Numbered from the stretch's first letter, positions 13,830 to 62,267 are shown. The stretch is DNA of 64,000 nt from Dehalococcoidia bacterium (GCA_965243255.1 CBDEUH010000004.1:1790979-1854978), one strand, 5' to 3'. Notes: generated from the sequence alone by a model not told the origin. Numbers and translations: made by a program.

Positions 13830-14690
13830 TCAGGGGCCGCGGATGCGTTTGAGGGCCTGGGCGGCGTTGAGGCGGTTGAGGTGTTGCCAGTTGGGGGAAA
13901 TCCAGTGGATCCGGTTGATGTCGATGGGGACTTCCGGGTGCTCCACGTTCCAGCGCTCCACGTACTTGGTGTAGCGGGCGAAGTAGTCTGCCATCACGTC
14001 GGCTTGGGCTGCGCCGATGACGAATTGGCCTCCGGGGGCTTCCTGGGCCATTTCCACACGCTGCTCGTCATCCAGGAGGTTGCCCTTGCAGTCGTGGAGT
14101 CGGTCTTCGCAGACGCAGGGGTAGGGGCGGATATTCGCGTAGTACGTCGAGCTGTGGCGGGCGAATTCCTGGTCTTCGGCCTGGCGGCGCCTGGCCTCCC
14201 GCTCCGCCGGGTCCAGGTCCAGGTCGAAGTCGTCGTCTGGGGTCTCTTCCGGTTCGGGGACGTAGTCGAAGCCCCGCTGCAGCAGCTCTTTGGCCGCGGA
14301 CAGCCGGTGGCAGGGTTTGAAGTCGGCGAACTCGCCCTGCATGGCGTCGATGAGGAAGCGGACGGCGACCCGGCCATCGTCGGTTTCCTCCCGGACGATG
14401 CGGGCCAGCTGGGCGCGTACATCGTTGGCCGCGTCCTGGGCTTCCCCCGCCTCCGCCCCTGGATTCCCGCCGGCGCGGGAATGACGGGATGCGGCGCGTT
14501 GGTCGGCCCGGGCCCGGTCAACGACGGCCTGGGCCTGGTCAAAGCCGAGTTTGACCAGGAGGCGGGCGGCATCGATGCGGTGGCAGGGGAGGAAGTCCGG
14601 GAGTTGGCCCTCCATGGCGGACAGCAGGAAGCGGACGATGCGGCGACCGTCCTGGGTTTCCTGGGCGATGACGTGGGCCAATGCGGACAT
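13830..14690 (-). CDS. Hypothetical protein with two tandem ~50-aa repeats and a Cys-containing C-terminal domain
   Basis: ATG 14688-14690 selected inside the 624-aa ORF; upstream of it the translation is Arg/Pro/His-rich shadow. Repeats are …QETQDGRRIVRFLLSAMEGQLPDFLPCHRIDAARLLVKLGFD and …REETDDGRVAVRFLIDAMQGEFADFKPCHRLSAAKELLQRGFD. Confidence 0.55.
   Translation of the reverse strand: MSALAHVIAQETQDGRRIVRFLLSAMEGQLPDFLPCHRIDAARLLVKLGFDQAQAVVDRARADQRAASRHSRAGGNPGAEAGEAQDAANDVRAQLARIVREETDDGRVAVRFLIDAMQGEFADFKPCHRLSAAKELLQRGFDYVPEPEETPDDDFDLDLDPAEREARRRQAEDQEFARHSSTYYANIRPYPCVCEDRLHDCKGNLLDDEQRVEMAQEAPGGQFVIGAAQADVMADYFARYTKYVERWNVEHPEVPIDINRIHWISPNWQHLNRLNAAQALKRIRGP
14461..14488 (+). repeat. 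REP-like element, family A, inside a CDS
   Basis: ggattcccgccggcgcgggaatgacggg. Lies in-frame within CDS 13830-14690, where it encodes …SRHSRAGGNPG… on the minus strand. Confidence 0.8.
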
Positions 14691-14823
14691 ATATTCTATT
14701 TTAGGATGGGTGACGGCGGGTGTCAACGGGGAGGTGTCATTGTCAGAATCAGGATTTTCGGGATTTGGGGATTGGCAGGATTGGGGGTGGGAGCATGGGA
14801 TGATGGCCACCCAGCTCCTGGAT

Positions 14824-14848
14824 GCCGGATCAAGTCCGGCATGACGGG
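14824..14848 (+). repeat. REP-like element, family A variant
   Basis: gccggatcaagtccggcatgacggg has the same ATGACGGG tail with a different 6-bp stem. Confidence 0.6.
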
Positions 14849-14963
14849 TGTGGGTGGGTGGGTTTGCGTTGACCGATTGGCGATGGTGGGTTAGATTCAG
14901 GGCTGGCACGGGGAGGCAGAGCGTTATCCCGTGCGAGTTGCCGAAGGATGGAGGACGATCGCT

Positions 14964-15734
14964 ATGCCGTTTTACGAAAGAGGCGCGACCCGCATTTATT
15001 ACGAAGAGGTGGGATCGGGGTTTCCGCTGCTGATCATTCCGGGCGGAGGGCTGGTGAATTCCACGGTGGAGGGGCTGAGAACCTCGCATCCGTTCAATCC
15101 GCTGGAGACGTATGGGGGCGACTTCCGCTGCATTGCGTCGGACCTGCGGAACGCACCGAACGGGCAATCGACCGGGCCGCTGGAGATTGACCGGCCCTGG
15201 GACGCGTTCACCGACGATCAGATCGGGCTGATGGACCACCTGGGCATCGACAAGTTCGGGGTGATTGGCTTCTGCATCGCCGGGCCGATGATACTGAACC
15301 TGCTGAGCCGGGCCGGTGGGCGAGTGGTGGCGGCGGCGCTGATGCAGCCCAGCGGGTACCGTCCGGAGCTGCCGGATCTGTTCTATCAGAACAACATCAC
15401 GGGCTGGGGGCCGCCGCTGTGCGAGCAGAGGTCGGACATCACCATGGAGATGGTGCACGACTTTTTGACGAACATGTACGTGAAGCGGGCGGATTTCGTG
15501 TTCACGGTGTCGCGGGAGTTCGTGAGCGGGCTGCAGACGCCGCTGCTGATCGCGCCCGACGACGTGCCGGCGCATCCGTACGCGCGGGCGATGGAGGTAG
15601 CCAACCTGGCGCCGAACTCGGAGGTAACCATCTATCCGTGGAAGGACACGCCGGAGCACACCGCCGAGGTGGTGGCGCACGGGCGTCGGTTCCTGAAGGC
15701 GCATACGCCGGCGGCGGTGGGGGCGGCGGACTGA
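14964..15734 (+). CDS. Alpha/beta-fold hydrolase
   Basis: ATG 14964 with AAGGATGGAGGA RBS upstream. MPFYERGATRIYYEEVGSGFPLLIIPGGG…, nucleophile-elbow-like GFCIAG. Confidence 0.75.
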   Translation: MPFYERGATRIYYEEVGSGFPLLIIPGGGLVNSTVEGLRTSHPFNPLETYGGDFRCIASDLRNAPNGQSTGPLEIDRPWDAFTDDQIGLMDHLGIDKFGVIGFCIAGPMILNLLSRAGGRVVAAALMQPSGYRPELPDLFYQNNITGWGPPLCEQRSDITMEMVHDFLTNMYVKRADFVFTVSREFVSGLQTPLLIAPDDVPAHPYARAMEVANLAPNSEVTIYPWKDTPEHTAEVVAHGRRFLKAHTPAAVGAAD

Positions 15735-55278: not shown

Positions 55279-56016
55279 ATGATTTCTCGAACCAACCTTG
55301 CCAGAGCGGCGGCCAACAAGTACCGGGGCGCCGCCATCCTGACCGTGCCCGCCGTGCTGCTGTTCCTGGTGGCCGGCTCGGTGGCGTGGGCGGTGAACGA
55401 CCCCGGGCTGTACCGCAACGGATTTGAGCGGTACGACACGGCGGCGCGCTCCGGCATCACCGACGCCGACCTGATCGTCATCGGGGCCGAACTGCGCCGG
55501 TACTTCAACACCTCCGTCGAGCCGCTGTCGGTGCGGGCGCCGATTTACGGGGTCGAGCAGGACGTGTTCAACGGGCGGGAGGTGGCGCACATGTACGACG
55601 TGAAGCGGTTGGTGCGGGGGACGTACTGGGTAGCCGTCGGGTCGGCGCTGTGGATCCTGGCGACGCTGGCGGGCGGATTTGCGTTGCGGCGGCGGGAGTA
55701 CGTCGGCTCGGCGGCGCGGCTGGCGCTGTGGGGCGGCGGCGTAACGCTGGCGGCGGTGGTTGGGGTCGGGCTGGCGTCGGTGGTGGCCTTCGAGGAGCTG
55801 TTCTTGCTGTTTCACCAGCTGAGCTTCGCCAACGACCTGTGGATCCTGGACCCGCGGACCGACTACCTGCTGATCATGTTTCCGGGGCCGTTCTGGTTCG
55901 ACGCGACGATGCGGGTGGCGGTGACGGCGGTGCTGGGGGCGGTGCTACTGCTGTCCAGCGGGGTTGCCGTGTTATGCTATGAACGTTGGCAATCGAAAAG
56001 GCAGAGCGGAGATTGA
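55279..56016 (+). CDS. TIGR01906/DUF1461-family integral membrane protein
   Basis: 245 aa, ~4 TM segments, with conserved …FNGREVAHMYDVK… and …FHQLSFANDLWILDPRTDYLLIMFP..FW…. Confidence 0.7.
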   Translation: MISRTNLARAAANKYRGAAILTVPAVLLFLVAGSVAWAVNDPGLYRNGFERYDTAARSGITDADLIVIGAELRRYFNTSVEPLSVRAPIYGVEQDVFNGREVAHMYDVKRLVRGTYWVAVGSALWILATLAGGFALRRREYVGSAARLALWGGGVTLAAVVGVGLASVVAFEELFLLFHQLSFANDLWILDPRTDYLLIMFPGPFWFDATMRVAVTAVLGAVLLLSSGVAVLCYERWQSKRQSGD

Positions 56017-56017
56017 G

Positions 56018-57070
56018 ATGACGCGGCAGCTCTCCTTACCCGGCCCCTTTGACTTGGAGCTCAGCCTGACGATGGGGCAGGCGTTTCGCTGGCGTTCGCT
56101 GGGCGACGGCTGGTTTTCGGGTGTGCTGGGGGAGAACCTGGTACACATTCGGCAGACGGAGGACGGGGTTGAGTACCGGGTTGGGGGACCGGAGGGGGAG
56201 CGGGAGGCTGGTGATGCTGATGATGAACTGCTGCGCCGCTACTTCCGGGCGGACGACGACGTTGGGGCGATTTACGCGGACATCAGCGGGCGCGACCCCA
56301 AGCTGGCCACGATCATCGAGGAGTTCCCGGGGTTGCGCATCCTGCGGCAGGATCCGTGGGAGTGCACGGTGGCCTACCTATGCTCGGCGAACAACAACGT
56401 CAAGCGTATCGGCGCGATTGTGGAAAGGATAGCGTGTGAGTTCGGCCGCACGTTGGCGTTGGGCCCCGACGTGAGCGCCGTGTTTCCGACGCCGGATCAG
56501 ATGCTTGCGGCCCGTGACCCCGTTGCGAAGCTTCACAAGATGCAATTGGGATTGTATCGAGACAAGAACATCGTCAAGGCGGCGCACCGCTTTGCGAACG
56601 GGGAATTGGATCCGGACCAGCTCAGGAGCGCGTCGTACCAGGATGTGCTGCCGGTGTTGATGGAGGGGGCGCGTAATAAGAGCAAGGCGAATGGCATCGG
56701 GCCCAAAGTTGCGGATTGCATCGCGTTGTTTTCGCTGGACCAACTGGATGCGTTCCCAGTGGACCTGTGGGTATGGCGGGCCATCACTGAGGCATATCCG
56801 GAATGGGGATTCCAGGAAAATACAAAGCCCAGCGATAAAAACCTCCGCGAGGTGTCTGAACAAGCCCGGCAGGTGTTCGGCGAATACGCCGGTTACGCCA
56901 ATCAGTACCTGTTCTACTGGCGGCGGCGATATGGCGAAGAACCCTTGCCATTTGCCACACGTTGGAGAGGGAAACTACGCATCACGCCGCCGGCTGGCCG
57001 AGAGATTAATGACCAATATCTTGACGACCTGCGCTACGAGTACCTGAAAGCCAAATACCTGTCATGTTGA
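56018..57070 (+). CDS. ogg: 8-oxoguanine DNA glycosylase/AP lyase (OGG1 type) with C-terminal extension
   Basis: ATG 56018. OGG_N pattern (LELSLTMGQAFRW…), …DPWECTVAYLCSANNNVKRI…, HhH-GPD with GIGPKVADCIALFSLD…FPVDLWVWR (catalytic Lys and Asp context). ~45 extra residues follow the fold. Confidence 0.8.
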   Translation: MTRQLSLPGPFDLELSLTMGQAFRWRSLGDGWFSGVLGENLVHIRQTEDGVEYRVGGPEGEREAGDADDELLRRYFRADDDVGAIYADISGRDPKLATIIEEFPGLRILRQDPWECTVAYLCSANNNVKRIGAIVERIACEFGRTLALGPDVSAVFPTPDQMLAARDPVAKLHKMQLGLYRDKNIVKAAHRFANGELDPDQLRSASYQDVLPVLMEGARNKSKANGIGPKVADCIALFSLDQLDAFPVDLWVWRAITEAYPEWGFQENTKPSDKNLREVSEQARQVFGEYAGYANQYLFYWRRRYGEEPLPFATRWRGKLRITPPAGREINDQYLDDLRYEYLKAKYLSC

Positions 57071-57468
57071 TTGACAACAACGTGCTGCTCGATCTTGGAC
57101 TCAACCGGAAGCCGGATTCCTTGATAACTGAGGAACTGCTCAATCGCATTGGGCAGTCGGCAACGACTGCGTTTGTATCTTGGCACTCCGTCGCTACGTG
57201 CCACTACATCATGGAGCGCGACATAGACCGGGCAACGGCCCGCGCTTTCGTTGAGCAACTAACCGCTTTACTTACCGTTGCACCGGTCGGCCACCAATCC
57301 CTTCTTTATGCCCTGACCCTGCCGATGAGCGACTTTGAGGACGCGATGCAGGTTGCCGCTGCCCGAGCCGCCGGGGCGCAGCACATCGTTACCCGCGACA
57401 TCGGGGACTTTGGCAACTCGCCCATTCGTGCGGTTACGCCGGAGGAGGCGTTGCGGGAGCTGTTTTAG
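57064..57468 (+). CDS. PIN-domain protein (VapC-like), no separate antitoxin ORF
   Basis: 134 aa: MLIDNNVLLDL…, …MSDFEDAMQVAAA…HIVTRDIGDF. The ATG overlaps the ogg stop by 7 nt. Confidence 0.75.
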   Translation: MLIDNNVLLDLGLNRKPDSLITEELLNRIGQSATTAFVSWHSVATCHYIMERDIDRATARAFVEQLTALLTVAPVGHQSLLYALTLPMSDFEDAMQVAAARAAGAQHIVTRDIGDFGNSPIRAVTPEEALRELF

Positions 57469-58405
57469 GGGGTGATTTCCGGACGCCGCCGGTGATGATG
57501 CGGAAGTGGGCGATAGTTTGGGCGTCGGCGAAGGCTTGCTGGGCGCGTCGGTAGAGGGGCTTGCTGCGGCGTTGCTGGGCATCGAGGAGGATGCCGACCA
57601 CGGTGCCGCTGTGGGCGACGTTGATGCCGGCCGCGCTGTGTTCTGCGGCGAAATCGGCGGCGCGGGCTACCCATTGGGCCGAGGCCGGCGGATGTCCGGC
57701 CAGGGCGCTAATGGTCGCGCCGCGGCCCACCAGGTTGGCATCGCTGCGGCGGATGCCCTCGCGCACCAGGGCCAGGGCCTCGGCGGTGCGGTGGGCAATC
57801 TCCTGCCACTGCTGCGTGCGGTCGATGCGGTTGAACTCCAGGGTGTCCACGACGCCGCCGGGGTCGATGACGATTACTTCCATGGCCGGCGGAGGCCCCA
57901 GGGATTCGACAGCGCTGCCCCGGCGGTGGTCGAAGAGGGTGATGCCGGGAAACATCACGCCGTCGGTGGGCTCGACGGACAGGGCGATGCGGGCGATTGC
58001 CTGCGGGGGGAAAGCACGGCCGGCGGCGTGGCCCAGCGCGCCGATGGCGGCCGTGATGTCGGCGCTGCTGCTGCCCATGCCCTTACCGGGCGGAATGGGG
58101 TTGGCGATGGACACCTGGGCGGATAGGTTGGCGACGCCGAGCTGGGCGGTCAGTTCGTCAAGGGCGATGGAAACGGCCTGCCGGGTCTTGGGCAGATGAT
58201 CGAGGCCGCGCACCGTGTGTCCGGAGGCGTCGCCGGCGCGCAGGGTGACGGTGGCGCGGGAAAACTGGTTGATGGGGCAGGTAACCAGAAAATCGGCGCC
58301 GTCGGCGATGCCCTGCACCAGTTCGCCGCAGGTTCCGGGGGCGAGGGCGGTGGCAGCGCCGATGGGTTCAGGCAAGGGGTTCACCTTGACCCGAGGCTTT
58401 CCCAT
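57434..58405 (-). CDS. pduX: GHMP-family kinase, probable L-threonine kinase of cobalamin lower-ligand linker synthesis (PduX-like)
   Basis: 323 aa: …APGTCGELVQG… N-terminal motif and GHMP motif PPGKGMGSSSAD. Directly upstream of cobU-cobQ-type neighbours. Confidence 0.6.
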   Translation of the reverse strand: MGKPRVKVNPLPEPIGAATALAPGTCGELVQGIADGADFLVTCPINQFSRATVTLRAGDASGHTVRGLDHLPKTRQAVSIALDELTAQLGVANLSAQVSIANPIPPGKGMGSSSADITAAIGALGHAAGRAFPPQAIARIALSVEPTDGVMFPGITLFDHRRGSAVESLGPPPAMEVIVIDPGGVVDTLEFNRIDRTQQWQEIAHRTAEALALVREGIRRSDANLVGRGATISALAGHPPASAQWVARAADFAAEHSAAGINVAHSGTVVGILLDAQQRRSKPLYRRAQQAFADAQTIAHFRIITGGVRKSPPKTAPATPPPA

Positions 58406-58973
58406 CGCGGGATAGGGCTTTGATTGGGAGGGGGATGCCGGCCACCACCAGGGTTACGGCGTCGGCGTCGGCGGCGATGGTTTGGTTCACGGTGCCCAGG
58501 AGGTCCTGGAACTGACGGCCCAGGGATGAGGTGGCGACGAGGGAGTGTCCGACCTCGCTGCTGACGATGACGGCAAGGGAGTCCAGGTCGGCGACGAAGG
58601 AGGCGAAGCGCCGCACTGCGCCGACGACGCGGGCTTCCAGCTCGGCCGGGGGGGCGTTTTCGTGCTCGAACATCAGGTTGGACACCCAGCCGTCGAGGGA
58701 GTCGAGCAACAGGACGGGCGGGCGGGCCGCATCCAGCGGCAACCCTTGCAGCGCGCCCACGGGGTTCAGGGGGGCTTCCACGGTCTGCCATGCCGCTGGG
58801 CGCCGTTCCTGGTGGCGCCGGATACGATCCGACATTTCGTCGTCAACGGCGACGCCGGTGGCCAGGTAAAGCACCGGGCGGTCGGTGGCCGAGGCCAGTT
58901 GGGCGGTGACCTTTTCGGCGTGGGCGCTCTTGCCGGAGCGGATGCCGCCCAGAACCAGATGGAGGCTGCTCAT
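58368..58973 (-). CDS. cobU: Adenosylcobinamide kinase / adenosylcobinamide-phosphate guanylyltransferase
   Basis: 201 aa with P-loop LVLGGIRSGKSAHAE and a CobU/CobP-sized protein. 4-nt overlap with cobQ. Confidence 0.85.
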   Translation of the reverse strand: MSSLHLVLGGIRSGKSAHAEKVTAQLASATDRPVLYLATGVAVDDEMSDRIRRHQERRPAAWQTVEAPLNPVGALQGLPLDAARPPVLLLDSLDGWVSNLMFEHENAPPAELEARVVGAVRRFASFVADLDSLAVIVSSEVGHSLVATSSLGRQFQDLLGTVNQTIAADADAVTLVVAGIPLPIKALSRDGKASGQGEPLA

Positions 58974-60544
58974 AGCGCCGGGGAGAGGCCCGTCATGTCG
59001 TACACCAAGTCCATGCGCAGGCTGTGGCGGACCCAGTCGGCGAGGCGGTCGTACTCGCGGTCGCGGGCCACGTCAACGCCCTCGGGCAGGGTTACGCCCT
59101 TACGCCGGGCCAGTTCGCCGAGGACGGCGCGGCGGACGCCGGCGTTGTGGAACAGGCCGTGGATGTAGGTTCCCAGCACGCGGCCGGAGGCGTCCAGGGC
59201 GCCGTCGAGGGCGGTGGCTGGCGTTACGGGAGCGTCGGCGCGGTCGTTGACGGCGAAGGGGGGGATGAAACCCTCGCCGACGGTGCGGCCCATGTGAATT
59301 TCGTAGCCGACGACGTTCTCGCCGGACGCGCCGGAGAGCAGGCCGCCGGGGTTGCCGGCCTCGGCGCGCACGGTGGCCTGGACCCGGTGGGTCTCCTTGG
59401 TGCCGGCGAAGGTGGTTGACAGGGGCAGGAGGCCCAAGCCGTCGGCCTGGCCGATGGTGGATTCGATGCCGTCGGGGTCGTAGAGGGTTTCGCCGAGCAT
59501 CTGGTAGCCGCCGCAGATGCCGATGACGGAGGAGCCGCCGGCGACGGTGTCGGCCAACGCGCGGGACAGCCCCTGCTCTTCCATCCAGAGCAGGTCGGGG
59601 ATGGTGGTCTTGCTGCCGGGCAGGATTACCAGGTCGGGGCGGCCCAGGCGGTCGCCGTGCTGGACGTAGCGCAGGGCCACGCCAGGCTCGCGGGCCAGGG
59701 GGTCGAAGTCGTCGAAGTTGGAGATGTGGGGCACCTGGACCACGGCGACGTCGAGGACGGCGGCGGCGGAAGATGACGGCGGCGTGATTTCCAGGGCGAC
59801 GGAGTCCTCTTCGGGGATGTGGATGTCGCGGAAGTGGTGGACGACGCCGACGACGGGCTTGCGGGTGCGTTTCTCCAGCCAGGTGAGGCCGTCGGTGAGC
59901 AGGGAGGCGTCGCCACGAAACTTGTTGATGATCATACCCTTGACCGCAGCCTTTTCCCTCCTGTTCAGCAGCGCCAGGGTGCCGACCAGGGAGGCGAAGA
60001 CGCCGCCGCGGTCGATGTCGCCGCAGAGGAGCACGGGGGCGTCGGCATAGAGGGCGACGCGCATATTGACGATTTCGGTCTTCTTGAGGTTGATTTCGGC
60101 GGGGCTGCCGGCGCCTTCAATAACCACCACATCGTGCTCGCGGCGGAGGGTGTCCAGGGACTGGCTAACGGAGTCCCACAGGGTGGCTTTGAGGTCGAAG
60201 TAGTCGCGGGCGCGCGCCGAGGTCAGCGGGCGGCCCATGAGGACCACCTGGGCGTGGCTGTCGGCTTCGGGTTTGAGCAGGACGGGGTTCATCTCGGCGC
60301 GGGCTTCGACGCCGGCGGCTTCGGCCTGGACGGCCTGGGCGCGGCCGATTTCGGCGCCGTCGGGCGTTACGTAGGAGTTGTTGGACATATTCTGCGCTTT
60401 GAAGGGGGCGACGCGCAGTCCGTCCTGGCGCAGGATGCGGCACAGCGCGGACACGAGCACGCTCTTGCCGACGTGGGACGCGGTTCCCTGGACCATCAGG
60501 ACGCGGCCCAGGGGGGCGGGCAATTCACTACCGACAACTGGCAT
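58970..60544 (-). CDS. cobQ: Cobyric acid synthase
   Basis: 524 aa with the CobQ/CobB ATPase domain (…MVQGTASHVGKSVLVSALCRIL…) and the GATase-3 domain (…ICGGYQMLG…IHG). Confidence 0.92.
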   Translation of the reverse strand: MPVVGSELPAPLGRVLMVQGTASHVGKSVLVSALCRILRQDGLRVAPFKAQNMSNNSYVTPDGAEIGRAQAVQAEAAGVEARAEMNPVLLKPEADSHAQVVLMGRPLTSARARDYFDLKATLWDSVSQSLDTLRREHDVVVIEGAGSPAEINLKKTEIVNMRVALYADAPVLLCGDIDRGGVFASLVGTLALLNRREKAAVKGMIINKFRGDASLLTDGLTWLEKRTRKPVVGVVHHFRDIHIPEEDSVALEITPPSSSAAAVLDVAVVQVPHISNFDDFDPLAREPGVALRYVQHGDRLGRPDLVILPGSKTTIPDLLWMEEQGLSRALADTVAGGSSVIGICGGYQMLGETLYDPDGIESTIGQADGLGLLPLSTTFAGTKETHRVQATVRAEAGNPGGLLSGASGENVVGYEIHMGRTVGEGFIPPFAVNDRADAPVTPATALDGALDASGRVLGTYIHGLFHNAGVRRAVLGELARRKGVTLPEGVDVARDREYDRLADWVRHSLRMDLVYDMTGLSPAL

Positions 60545-60654
60545 AAGGACCTCCGCGGTAATGATACCCTATTCATTGACTGCCGGCGTTGCCTGGGGTA
60601 TGGTAAATGCCGCTATGCGCTTACCTTAGAATCACCGCCAGGGAGTGTGCCAAG

Positions 60655-61080
60655 ATGGCCGAACAAGACCTGCCCGTGTTCGTGTACGACGAAGTCGAAA
60701 TCGGCGAAGAACTCGGCTCCTACGAATATCTGCTGACGCAGGAGATGGTTGACCTGTACCGCAAGGCGGTGGACGACCCGGACGCGGTGTTCCCCACCAT
60801 AGCCGTCAAGCACGACGCCACCTCCCTGGCCCTGGCCTACGACGACCAGACGGGGGGCATCAACGCGGGCAACGAGATCGACCTGCACAATCCGCCGATT
60901 CCCGGCAAGAAGATACGGGTTACCGGGCGGGTGCACGACAAGTACGTGCGTCGGGAGAAGCCCTACCTGGTGATTGAGGCCACGGCGACGGACGAGGACG
61001 GCCGGCTCATTGAGAAAATGCGCACCTATCAAATCAAGAAACCCGAGGAGTTGGGCAAAAAATGGCATCCGCAAGGCTAG
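60655..61080 (+). CDS. Hotdog-fold (MaoC-like dehydratase N-type) protein
   Basis: ATG 60655. 141 aa, …GKKIRVTGRVHDKYVRREKPYLVIEATATDEDGRLIEK…, a typical hotdog sheet ending. Paired with the next gene. Confidence 0.65.
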   Translation: MAEQDLPVFVYDEVEIGEELGSYEYLLTQEMVDLYRKAVDDPDAVFPTIAVKHDATSLALAYDDQTGGINAGNEIDLHNPPIPGKKIRVTGRVHDKYVRREKPYLVIEATATDEDGRLIEKMRTYQIKKPEELGKKWHPQG

Positions 61081-61484
61081 ACAGCGAAACGCTGCCGGTA
61101 ATTTCCAAGCACATCACGCAGGACGTGATCAACCAGTTCGAGTCGTGCGGCATCCTGAACCGGGCGAACATCCACAACGACCCGGAGCTGGCGGCCAAGC
61201 GGCTGGGCACGACCTACGCCATCGCGTCGGGTCGCATGAGCATCGCGTTTTGCACGGAGGCCATGCGCAAGTTCGTGGGGGCGGAGGACTTTCACCGCAG
61301 CGGCAACGTGAGCCTGAAGTTCTTGCGTCCGGTGAAGCACGGCGACACGGTGTCGGTGCACGGGCAGGTGAACAGCCGGCAGCCCCAGGACGACGGCAGC
61401 ACGATGGTCGTGGTTGACGTGTACTGCGAGAACCAGGACGGCGACAAGACGGCGGTGGGGCAGGCGAGCGCGGTGGTTCGCTAG
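61062..61484 (+). CDS. MaoC-family dehydratase (hotdog fold)
   Basis: 140 aa: …NIHNDPELA…, …FLRPVKHGDTVSVHGQV…VVVDVYCENQDGDKTAVGQASAVV. Confidence 0.7.
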   Translation: MASARLDSETLPVISKHITQDVINQFESCGILNRANIHNDPELAAKRLGTTYAIASGRMSIAFCTEAMRKFVGAEDFHRSGNVSLKFLRPVKHGDTVSVHGQVNSRQPQDDGSTMVVVDVYCENQDGDKTAVGQASAVVR

Positions 61485-61526: not shown

Positions 61527-61883
61527 ATGACTACCGTAGTTGAATACCACGCCGAAAGGAGTTGGCACTTCCTCGACCTGGTGGACGATGAGGTGGAACG
61601 GGGCGAGTTGGAGGAGGCCAGCAACAAGTTGTGGGGCGCGGCCGCTCATGCCATCAAGGCGGTGGCCGAGCGCCGGGGCTGGTTCCACGGCTCGCACAAC
61701 GCGCTGGCGGATACCGTGATGCGCTTGATTGACGATGAAGGCGCCCCGGCAATTCTGTACACGTACTATTCATCGGCAAGCTCGTTTCATTCGCGATTTT
61801 ACGGCTGGCCTCCCGGCGTTAATGAAATCCGGCACGGCAAGGGGGAAATGGCGAACTTCATCCGTATGCTGGAAGATTTGTAA
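61527..61883 (+). CDS. PaREP1-like helical protein
   Basis: 118 aa. …GELEEASNKLWGAAAHAIKAVAERRGW…SH.AL…………FHSRFYGW… follows the pattern I recall for PaREP1-family proteins. Confidence 0.5.
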   Translation: MTTVVEYHAERSWHFLDLVDDEVERGELEEASNKLWGAAAHAIKAVAERRGWFHGSHNALADTVMRLIDDEGAPAILYTYYSSASSFHSRFYGWPPGVNEIRHGKGEMANFIRMLEDL

Positions 61884-61952
61884 GCGAGGGGGCGTCTCTT
61901 GCCGCCGAAGCGCATTGACCTGTTGAACGACCGCATTACAGGAGCAACCCGA

Positions 61953-62267
61953 ATGACCATGACCCGTTCCGAGTTCGGCAAAGTTGAAGTGGACATCGTT
62001 TATTGCGTGCCTTGAGGCTACCACGGCCTCGCCACGTGGCTGGCGACCGAGTTCTGGCGTTCGCAAAACGCCGGCGACATTGCCATCAAACTGACGCCGG
62101 CGGACAAGGGCCGGCTGGAGATTTACCTGGACGGCGCGAAGATATTTGACCGCTTTGACGAGGAAGGGGACGAATACCCCGGCTACAGCAAGGTGAACGA
62201 ACTGAAGATGGTCATTGCCGAGCGCGTCTTCGACGTTGAAGACGAGATGATGGCGGCCAACAACTGA
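61953..62267 (+). CDS. SelW/SelT/SelH (Rdx)-family selenoprotein, TGA(62013-62015) read as selenocysteine
   Basis: GGAG lies 8 nt upstream of the ATG. Single frame: MTMTRSEFGKVEVDIVYCVP-U-GYHGLATWLATEFWRS…IKLTPADKGRLEIYLDGAKIFDRFDEEGDEYPGYSKVNELKMVIAERVF…, with the CxxU motif at the Rdx redox position. Hairpin immediately 3' of the TGA. Not present in the ORF track. Confidence 0.75.
62017..62044 (+). promoter_or_regulatory. Candidate bacterial SECIS hairpin
   Basis: GCUACCACG (62017-62025) pairs with CGUGG-C-UGGC (62035-62044): 9 bp with one bulge and one G-U. The loop is 9 nt (GCCUCGCCA), and the apex lies ~15 nt 3' of the UGA. Confidence 0.5.

Follow-up and report, generated by a model that had tools for sequence, protein, structure and literature searches.

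Evidence for a SelW-like selenoprotein gene of the Rdx family with a proposed bacterial SECIS hairpin in a Dehalococcoidia bacterium

The window analysed in this study, a stretch of 64,000 nt from a Dehalococcoidia bacterium (GCA_965243255.1, CBDEUH010000004.1:1790979-1854978), very probably contains a SelW-like selenoprotein gene at 61953-62267, in which UGA at codon 21 encodes selenocysteine (Sec) and a hairpin at 62029-62046 serves as the SECIS element. The product is an Rdx-family protein of 103-104 residues, and the source bacterium is a SAR202-like, probably sponge-associated member of the Dehalococcoidia. A first-pass annotation had proposed a hidden selenoprotein gene of this family at the same place. 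Our data support this reading, with the SECIS element reassigned to another hairpin, and describe a real but ordinary member of the known bacterial SelW-like (Rdx) family.

Results

Reading frame and translation signals

The region 61953-62267 (+) encodes a single frame of 104 codons, Sec21 counted, which ends at the terminator TGA 62265-62267 (+). Only one further in-frame TGA is present, codon 21 at 62013-62015 (+), in the context VEVDIVYCVP-[TGA]-GYHGLATWLATEFW. When the translation was repeated, it was identical to that of the first-pass annotation in start, stop, length and the single internal TGA. The ribosome-binding motif noted earlier 8 nt upstream of the ATG was recovered as well. 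It is a Shine-Dalgarno-like AGGAG at 61940-61944 (+), read from the sequence, with its end 8 nt 5' of ATG 61953, and would presumably act in translation initiation. A start at ATG 61959 is as plausible as one at 61953, and more divergent homologues (MPGAEF...) begin at the position that corresponds to the former.

The frame had been described as uncalled in the ORF track since the TGA splits it, and the ORF list does break at 62013-62015: upstream of this position only a 38-aa ORF (61899-62015) is present. Past the internal TGA, no ATG, GTG or TTG occurs in frame before GTG 62193, from which only 24 codons remain. Thus, the downstream part is not an independent gene, in line with the earlier statement that it has no start codon of its own, or more precisely no useful one. 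The Sec codon TGA resembles a stop, and the gene has therefore been overlooked by gene callers.

A crude scan for other TGA-interrupted coding frames in the window yielded 24 composition-passing candidates, of which only the SelW-like gene was convincing. The others that were inspected were neighbouring genes in the same frame.

Rdx family membership and predicted fold

Profile searches in Pfam and NCBIfam were carried out with Sec21 (U) written as Cys. The Pfam model PF10262 (Rdx, formerly PF05169) matched with 43.6 bits (cutoff 22.6; E = 3.5e-11), residues 12-85 corresponding to profile positions 1-69 of 74. The match covers both sides of the TGA, which the first-pass annotation had named as a check on its proposal. 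TIGR02174 (CXXU_selWTH, NCBIfam) was passed marginally, with 35.6 bits at a cutoff of 34.2. The score for the equivalog model NF041051 (SelTWH_Campy) was 35.2 bits at a cutoff of 88, so that the protein is not a member of the Campylobacter-type equivalog.

All significant sequence matches in the PDB were Rdx-family proteins, namely 2p0g, 2obk, 2fa8, 2oka, 2ojl, 3dex and MIEN1. Their CxxC motifs are in exact register with C18/U21, as illustrated by YCRQC and YCTQC of 2p0g and 2obk. The redox motif Cys18-Val-Pro-Sec21 (TGC GTG CCT TGA, 62004-62015, +) therefore shares its columns with the CxxC of solved Rdx proteins, and the TGA is located at the second redox residue of Cys-x-x-Sec/Cys, as had been claimed. 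The solved bacterial Rdx proteins carry Cys where the window protein has Sec, and their similarity to it is low (identity only 24-29%, E from 2e-5 to 2e-2).

As a stand-in for the window protein, P0005, the natural Cys homologue with 65% identity, was modelled using a family alignment. This AlphaFold model (pLDDT 82, pTM 0.75) has the thioredoxin-like topology b1-a1-b2-b3-b4-a2. Strand b1 comprises residues 11-18 and ends at C18, and C21 lies ahead of helix a1 (24-36), which places the CxxC between b1 and a1. In a Foldseek search of the PDB with the P0005 model the top 22 matches were all Rdx/SelW proteins, mouse SelW (2npb) among them, and thioredoxins came next. The fold is the same as in 2fa8 (Agrobacterium Atu0228), 2p0g (Vibrio cholerae), 2obk (Pseudomonas fluorescens), 2oka, 2ojl and 3dex at a Foldseek probability of 1.00, and target-length TM-scores of the model against the top Rdx structure matches ranged from 0.63 to 0.82. 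Mouse SelW has the Rdx fold (target-length TM-score of 0.76 with the P0005 model) and the CxxU motif in common with the window protein, at an identity of 22%.

Orthologous loci

A scan for orthologues restricted to one genome per species resulted in 80 loci (L001-L080), all from metagenome-assembled genomes of Dehalococcoidia/Chloroflexota and many of them from sponges. The nearest relative of the window gene was found on VXTR01000039.1 (Chloroflexi bacterium SB0666_bin_1), with 98% protein identity. These loci contributed 76 distinct DNA sequences, whose gapless alignment was used to compare three candidate hairpins, A, B and C, in the region of the internal UGA.

The proposed SECIS element

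Hairpin A, the proposed bacterial SECIS (62029-62046, +), is formed by a 6-bp stem of 62029-62034 (UCGCCA) with 62041-62046 (UGGCGA) and a hexaloop at 62035-62040 (CGUGGC), which would be the binding site of SelB. Its loop carries G-U at positions 2-3 and is 19 nt from the UGA, and the dG is a modest -8.6 kcal/mol. This hairpin is the RNAalifold consensus, with 100% of the alignment cells paired in 76/76 distinct sequences. Both bases of pair 62030-62045 are synonymous third positions, and the pair occurs as CG (63), UG (6), UA (3), AU (2), GC (1) and GU (1). The observed covariation values were attained in 0 of 500 shuffles. Covariation is confined to this one pair of six, the other five being invariant or changed on one side only, which neither supports nor contradicts the stem.

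Codon usage over hairpin A is similarly constrained. In the per-codon profile the third-position entropy is zero at 62031-62042, with GCC in 80/80 and ACG in 63/63 cases, TGG, and G as the third base of CTG/TTG in 78/78. The GCG codon is found in 73/80 loci; where it is replaced, the change covaries with that at the partner position. Four-fold degenerate codons in the rest of the gene show third-position entropies of 1.1-1.8 bits. The divergent C-V-S-U members keep the hairpin and add a further A-U variant at its covarying pair. The sequence of the Cys homologue (GCC ATG TGG ATG CTG ACC) can no longer form it.

The bSECIS model of Zhang and Gladyshev, as given in PMC13188914, describes a loop of 3-9 nt on a stem of 4-16 bp, with a G in the first two loop positions, at 16-37 nt from the UGA and with an MFE of at most -7.5 kcal/mol. 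The loop typically reads N1-G-[G/U]-N-N2, with N1 and N2 pairing (PMC13188914). Hairpin A lies within all four limits, and 64 of the 76 sequences reach -7.5 kcal/mol or lower. On one sequence the model is weakly specific, as about 13% of the TGA triplets of the window (64% GC) pass by chance. Since compliant hairpins are that common, the case for the SECIS rests on comparative evidence. On its own, the window sequence around the TGA is no more stably folded than shuffled controls (z = -0.45 and -1.18). Rfam searches, at the gathering threshold on the window and with permissive settings on the gene, matched no SECIS-type model and returned only tRNA-Gln and two chance snoRNA matches.

The first-pass annotation had placed the SECIS in a different structure, hairpin B, starting 2 nt after the TGA. 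This hairpin does exist: at 62017-62044 nine pairs, one of them G-U, can form, with a 1-nt bulge at 62040 and a 9-nt loop (GCCUCGCCA). Hairpins A and B have bases in common and are therefore mutually exclusive. The gene might be a selenoprotein gene whose functional SECIS is hairpin B, or in which A and B alternate. Hairpin B is thermodynamically the stronger of the two (-12.6 versus -8.6 kcal/mol), it is compatible with 97.7% of the alignment cells, and some bacterial SECIS elements have been reported outside the consensus model (PMC13188914). Its distance from UGA to loop is only 10 nt, however, below the 16-37 nt of the model, and its pairing probability in the window ensemble is about 0.05. 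None of its pairs shows a two-sided change, and pair 62018-62043 is broken in 16 of the 76 sequences. The variation present is restricted to C/U facing an invariant G at two-fold degenerate codons and hence is uninformative, and hairpin A, being built from the same bases, wholly accounts for the conservation of the 3' arm. We consider a SECIS role of hairpin B, alone or in alternation, improbable. As the primary SECIS it was rejected for its short spacing and absent covariation, and hairpin A is favoured; the structure noted earlier is real and probably is not the SECIS element.

Hairpin C (62014-62030, 6 bp, dG -9.4 kcal/mol) is the MFE structure of the single sequence and overlaps the UGA. 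It was also rejected: only 86.6% of the alignment cells are paired, three pairs are broken in about 20 of 76 sequences each, the 4-nt spacing is outside the bSECIS range, and there is no G in the loop.

In the SECIS of E. coli fdhF, the loop starts about 21-22 nt from the U of the UGA and presents G-U to SelB. Compared with this element, hairpin A is unrelated in primary sequence and has neither a bulged U nor an extended lower stem supported by covariation; the alignment columns flanking hairpin A show no consistent pairing that would extend the lower stem. With the consensus bacterial SECIS it shares a 6-nt N1-G-U-N-N2-N apical loop, a 6-bp upper stem and a 19-nt spacing. Eukaryotic SECIS elements reside in the 3' UTR and work through SBP2/eEFSec. 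The element proposed here thus differs from that of mammalian selenoprotein W, as it is located inside the coding region and would act through SelB.

Decoding of the internal UGA

The codon at the Sec column is TGA in all 80 orthologous loci, within the motif C-V-P-TGA-G-Y-H, and in about 4 more divergent loci (L084-L088). The frames are otherwise intact, without any other stop or frameshift. On both sides of the TGA the flanking codons specify invariant amino acids and change freely at synonymous positions; Val, for example, is encoded by all four of its codons. Hence, both halves are translated in one frame and are under selection at the protein level. The terminal stop of the 80 orthologues drifts (TAG 34, TGA 26, TAA 20), and the internal TGA is never replaced by TAA or TAG. 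A look-up of the DNA of the Cys homologue P0005 revealed a genuine TGT at the Sec column. The alignment of orthologues, another check put forward in the first-pass annotation, therefore resulted in a conserved TGA column with one TGT homologue and no scattered damage.

A single sequence with an in-frame stop would look the same if an Rdx-family gene had been killed by a nonsense mutation, and the public annotations list only truncated products of 57-76 aa. Against such a pseudogene stand the retention of the same TGA in every species, with no other lesion, its strict form where the real stop varies, the two-sided amino acid conservation with synonymous drift, and the position of the TGA exactly at the catalytic CxxC column. 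The 76 distinct DNA sequences argue against copies of one contaminant. We regard decay of the gene as highly improbable, and in fact as ruled out by the comparative data.

Equally hard to maintain is the assumption of two products, a 20-residue leader peptide and an independently started C-terminal protein, as implied by the public records. Gene callers do give proteins of 57-76 aa starting past the TGA in many relatives. The called starts vary among these relatives and fall on non-conserved positions, however, and in the window the first start past the TGA would be GTG 62193 with its 24 codons. The truncated form would have neither strand b1 nor the redox motif, and the Pfam match requires both halves.

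The least probable reading, that of TGA as tryptophan (genetic code 4/25), draws on six database proteins with CVPWGY or CVSWGY and is ruled out by the codon usage of the window, where TGA ends the genes of OGG, CobU and CobQ as well as the SelW-like gene itself and nine other genes contain 38 TGG and no internal TGA codons; moreover, a conserved Trp eight codons past the Sec column is TGG in 80/80 orthologues, whereas code 4 would interchange TGA and TGG, and the W entries checked at the DNA level, P0006 and P0020, have TGA at the Sec column and differ from their database proteins when translated with code 11. Selenocysteine thus is the preferred reading of the internal UGA.

Full-length database entries show W at the Sec column in six cases (P0002-P0004, P0006, P0020 and P0023), C in one and R in one. 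The R entry, P0001, corresponds to L083 47-352 (GCA_044240405.1), a single 878-bp contig with ACT AGA (Thr-Arg) instead of CCT TGA. This singleton keeps hairpin A despite the Arg codon. Sec may have been lost recently in this homologue, or the sequence may represent a non-redox variant or an assembly error.

Immediately 5' of the Sec-UGA, the Pro codon (62010-62012) is CCT in 80/80 orthologues and does not vary synonymously. At this position TCT or AGT is found in divergent Sec forms, ACT in the Arg variant and CCC in the Cys homologue. The base 5' of the UGA is thus U in every Sec form and C in the Cys form. Judged from these sequences, Sec decoding in this lineage may require a U directly ahead of the Sec-UGA, which would be a context effect not noted so far.

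Machinery for selenocysteine insertion

Neither selA, selB, selD nor tRNA-Sec was found in the 64-kb window, where tRNA-Gln was the only tRNA, and Pfam searches of the window ORFs of SelA/SelB/SelD-like size and of neighbouring ORFs likewise found no Sec machinery. The 12-kb flanks of the first 60 loci contained none of the four genes either. Published COG counts for sponge-symbiont SAR202 bins list SelA (COG1921), SelB (COG3276) and SelD (COG0709) with 3, 1 and 1 genes in bin87 and 2, 1 and 1 genes in bin22 (PMC5649159 Table S4). These bins are MPNC and MPMM, respectively (Slaby et al. 2017, PMC5649159 Table 2), to which the TGA orthologues L027 (MPNC) and L075 (MPMM) belong. SelA and SelB co-occur in most of the sponge-symbiont bins (PMC5649159). 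The Sec machinery is accordingly documented for related genomes only, through the published COG table.

Genomic neighbourhood

Directly downstream of the SelW-like gene and on the same strand, a pentapeptide-repeat gene (PF00805; 62311-63012, +; 233 aa) is present in 80/80 loci, about 270 nt after the TGA. It is retained even at a SelW identity of about 66%, and the marine SAR202 contigs L086-L088 have a 233-aa gene at the same position (472-1173). The gap between the SelW-like stop and this gene is 43 nt, and no promoter-like or terminator-like site was predicted in it. The two genes might form a fixed module that is co-transcribed and encodes interacting partners, a proposal that we make tentatively and consider rather unlikely in this full form.

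The pair of genes upstream, 60607-61080 (+) and 61062-61484 (+), overlaps by 19 nt and lies on the same strand as the SelW-like gene in 67/80 loci. A MaoC-like hotdog domain was identified in the latter; the former has no Pfam match. Together they look like a hotdog-fold heterodimeric hydratase pair belonging to the conserved cluster.

Between the MaoC-like and the SelW-like gene, a 118-aa ORF (61527-61883, +) matches PaREP1/PaREP8 (PF05942; 35.3 bits, cutoff 24.4), an archaeal family that is unusual for a bacterium. Such an ORF occurs at this place in only 25-26 of the 80 loci, which suggests that it was inserted into the conserved cluster.

Further upstream and on the opposite strand, a cobalamin-related run (57434-60544, -) comprises a GHMP-kinase-like gene, CobU and CobQ. 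It is common to only 3/80 loci and hence is not linked to the selenoprotein cluster. A gene for an OGG-type DNA glycosylase is located at 55964-57070 (+).

The Cys-form homologue is found in another setting. In L081 (712-1905) the homologue with CVPC is located directly 3' of OsmC and glutaredoxin genes, and the pentapeptide-repeat gene is absent after it. The glutaredoxin gene is also seen in L082 (496-1132). This is a redox context unlike that of the Sec forms.

Elsewhere in the window, a 624-aa ORF at 13830-15704 (-) has no Pfam match and overlaps the plus-strand ORFs 13881-14894 and 14931-15734. Rather than a real gene, this ORF is probably an antisense artefact due to high GC content.

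Discussion

A mechanism in keeping with the established bacterial pathway can be outlined for this gene. Decoding of UGA 62013-62015 as selenocysteine would place Cys18-Val-Pro-Sec21 where b1 meets a1 in a thioredoxin-like fold. With the UGA in the A site, SelB-GTP-Sec-tRNA(Sec) would bind the CGUGGC loop of hairpin A at the ribosomal mRNA entrance, and hairpin C, overlapping the UGA, would already have been unwound inside the ribosome at that point. After Sec insertion, translation would go on to UGA 62265, where there is no SECIS element and termination would be expected. At the N-terminal end of helix a1, the Cys18/Sec21 pair would cycle between the selenol/thiol and the selenenylsulfide state, which would be consistent with a redox function of the protein.

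Bacterial SelW-like CxxU selenoproteins are known from the metagenomes of the Sargasso Sea and GOS, with 48 and 427 genes, respectively, and since 2005 have counted as the most abundant family of marine selenoproteins (PMC1088965, PMC2398784). The window gene resembles these in its length of about 100 aa, the N-terminal CxxU, the in-frame UGA, the rarity of Cys homologues and the marine habitat, and also in the SECIS hairpin just 3' of the UGA within the coding region. Particular to the clade of the window gene (Dehalococcoidia/SAR202) are the C-V-P-U motif, an acidic C-terminal tail, its own SECIS sequence and the fixed pentapeptide-repeat neighbour downstream. These features were not found described in this literature (PMC1088965, PMC2398784); otherwise there is nothing fundamentally different.

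In public protein collections the family is represented by more than 100 truncated entries of roughly 57-76 aa (among P0007-P0120), all of which start past the TGA column. The Trp at the Sec position of the full-length entries probably resulted from gene callers reading TGA as Trp on short contigs. Truncated and Trp entries alike are a systematic annotation artefact. Some of the fragments are already labelled 'predicted Rdx family selenoprotein' by JGI.

Conclusions

Selenoprotein biology as known is not changed by the window gene. If co-transcription and interaction with the downstream gene were true, the pentapeptide-repeat protein could be the partner or substrate that has long been sought for a bacterial SelW-like protein. 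The main value of our analysis is the correction of annotation, as selenium use is undercounted in SAR202/Dehalococcoidia, a major marine and sponge-symbiont lineage. Furthermore, the clade-specific bacterial SECIS with its covariation could seed a model to find further selenoprotein genes in Chloroflexota.
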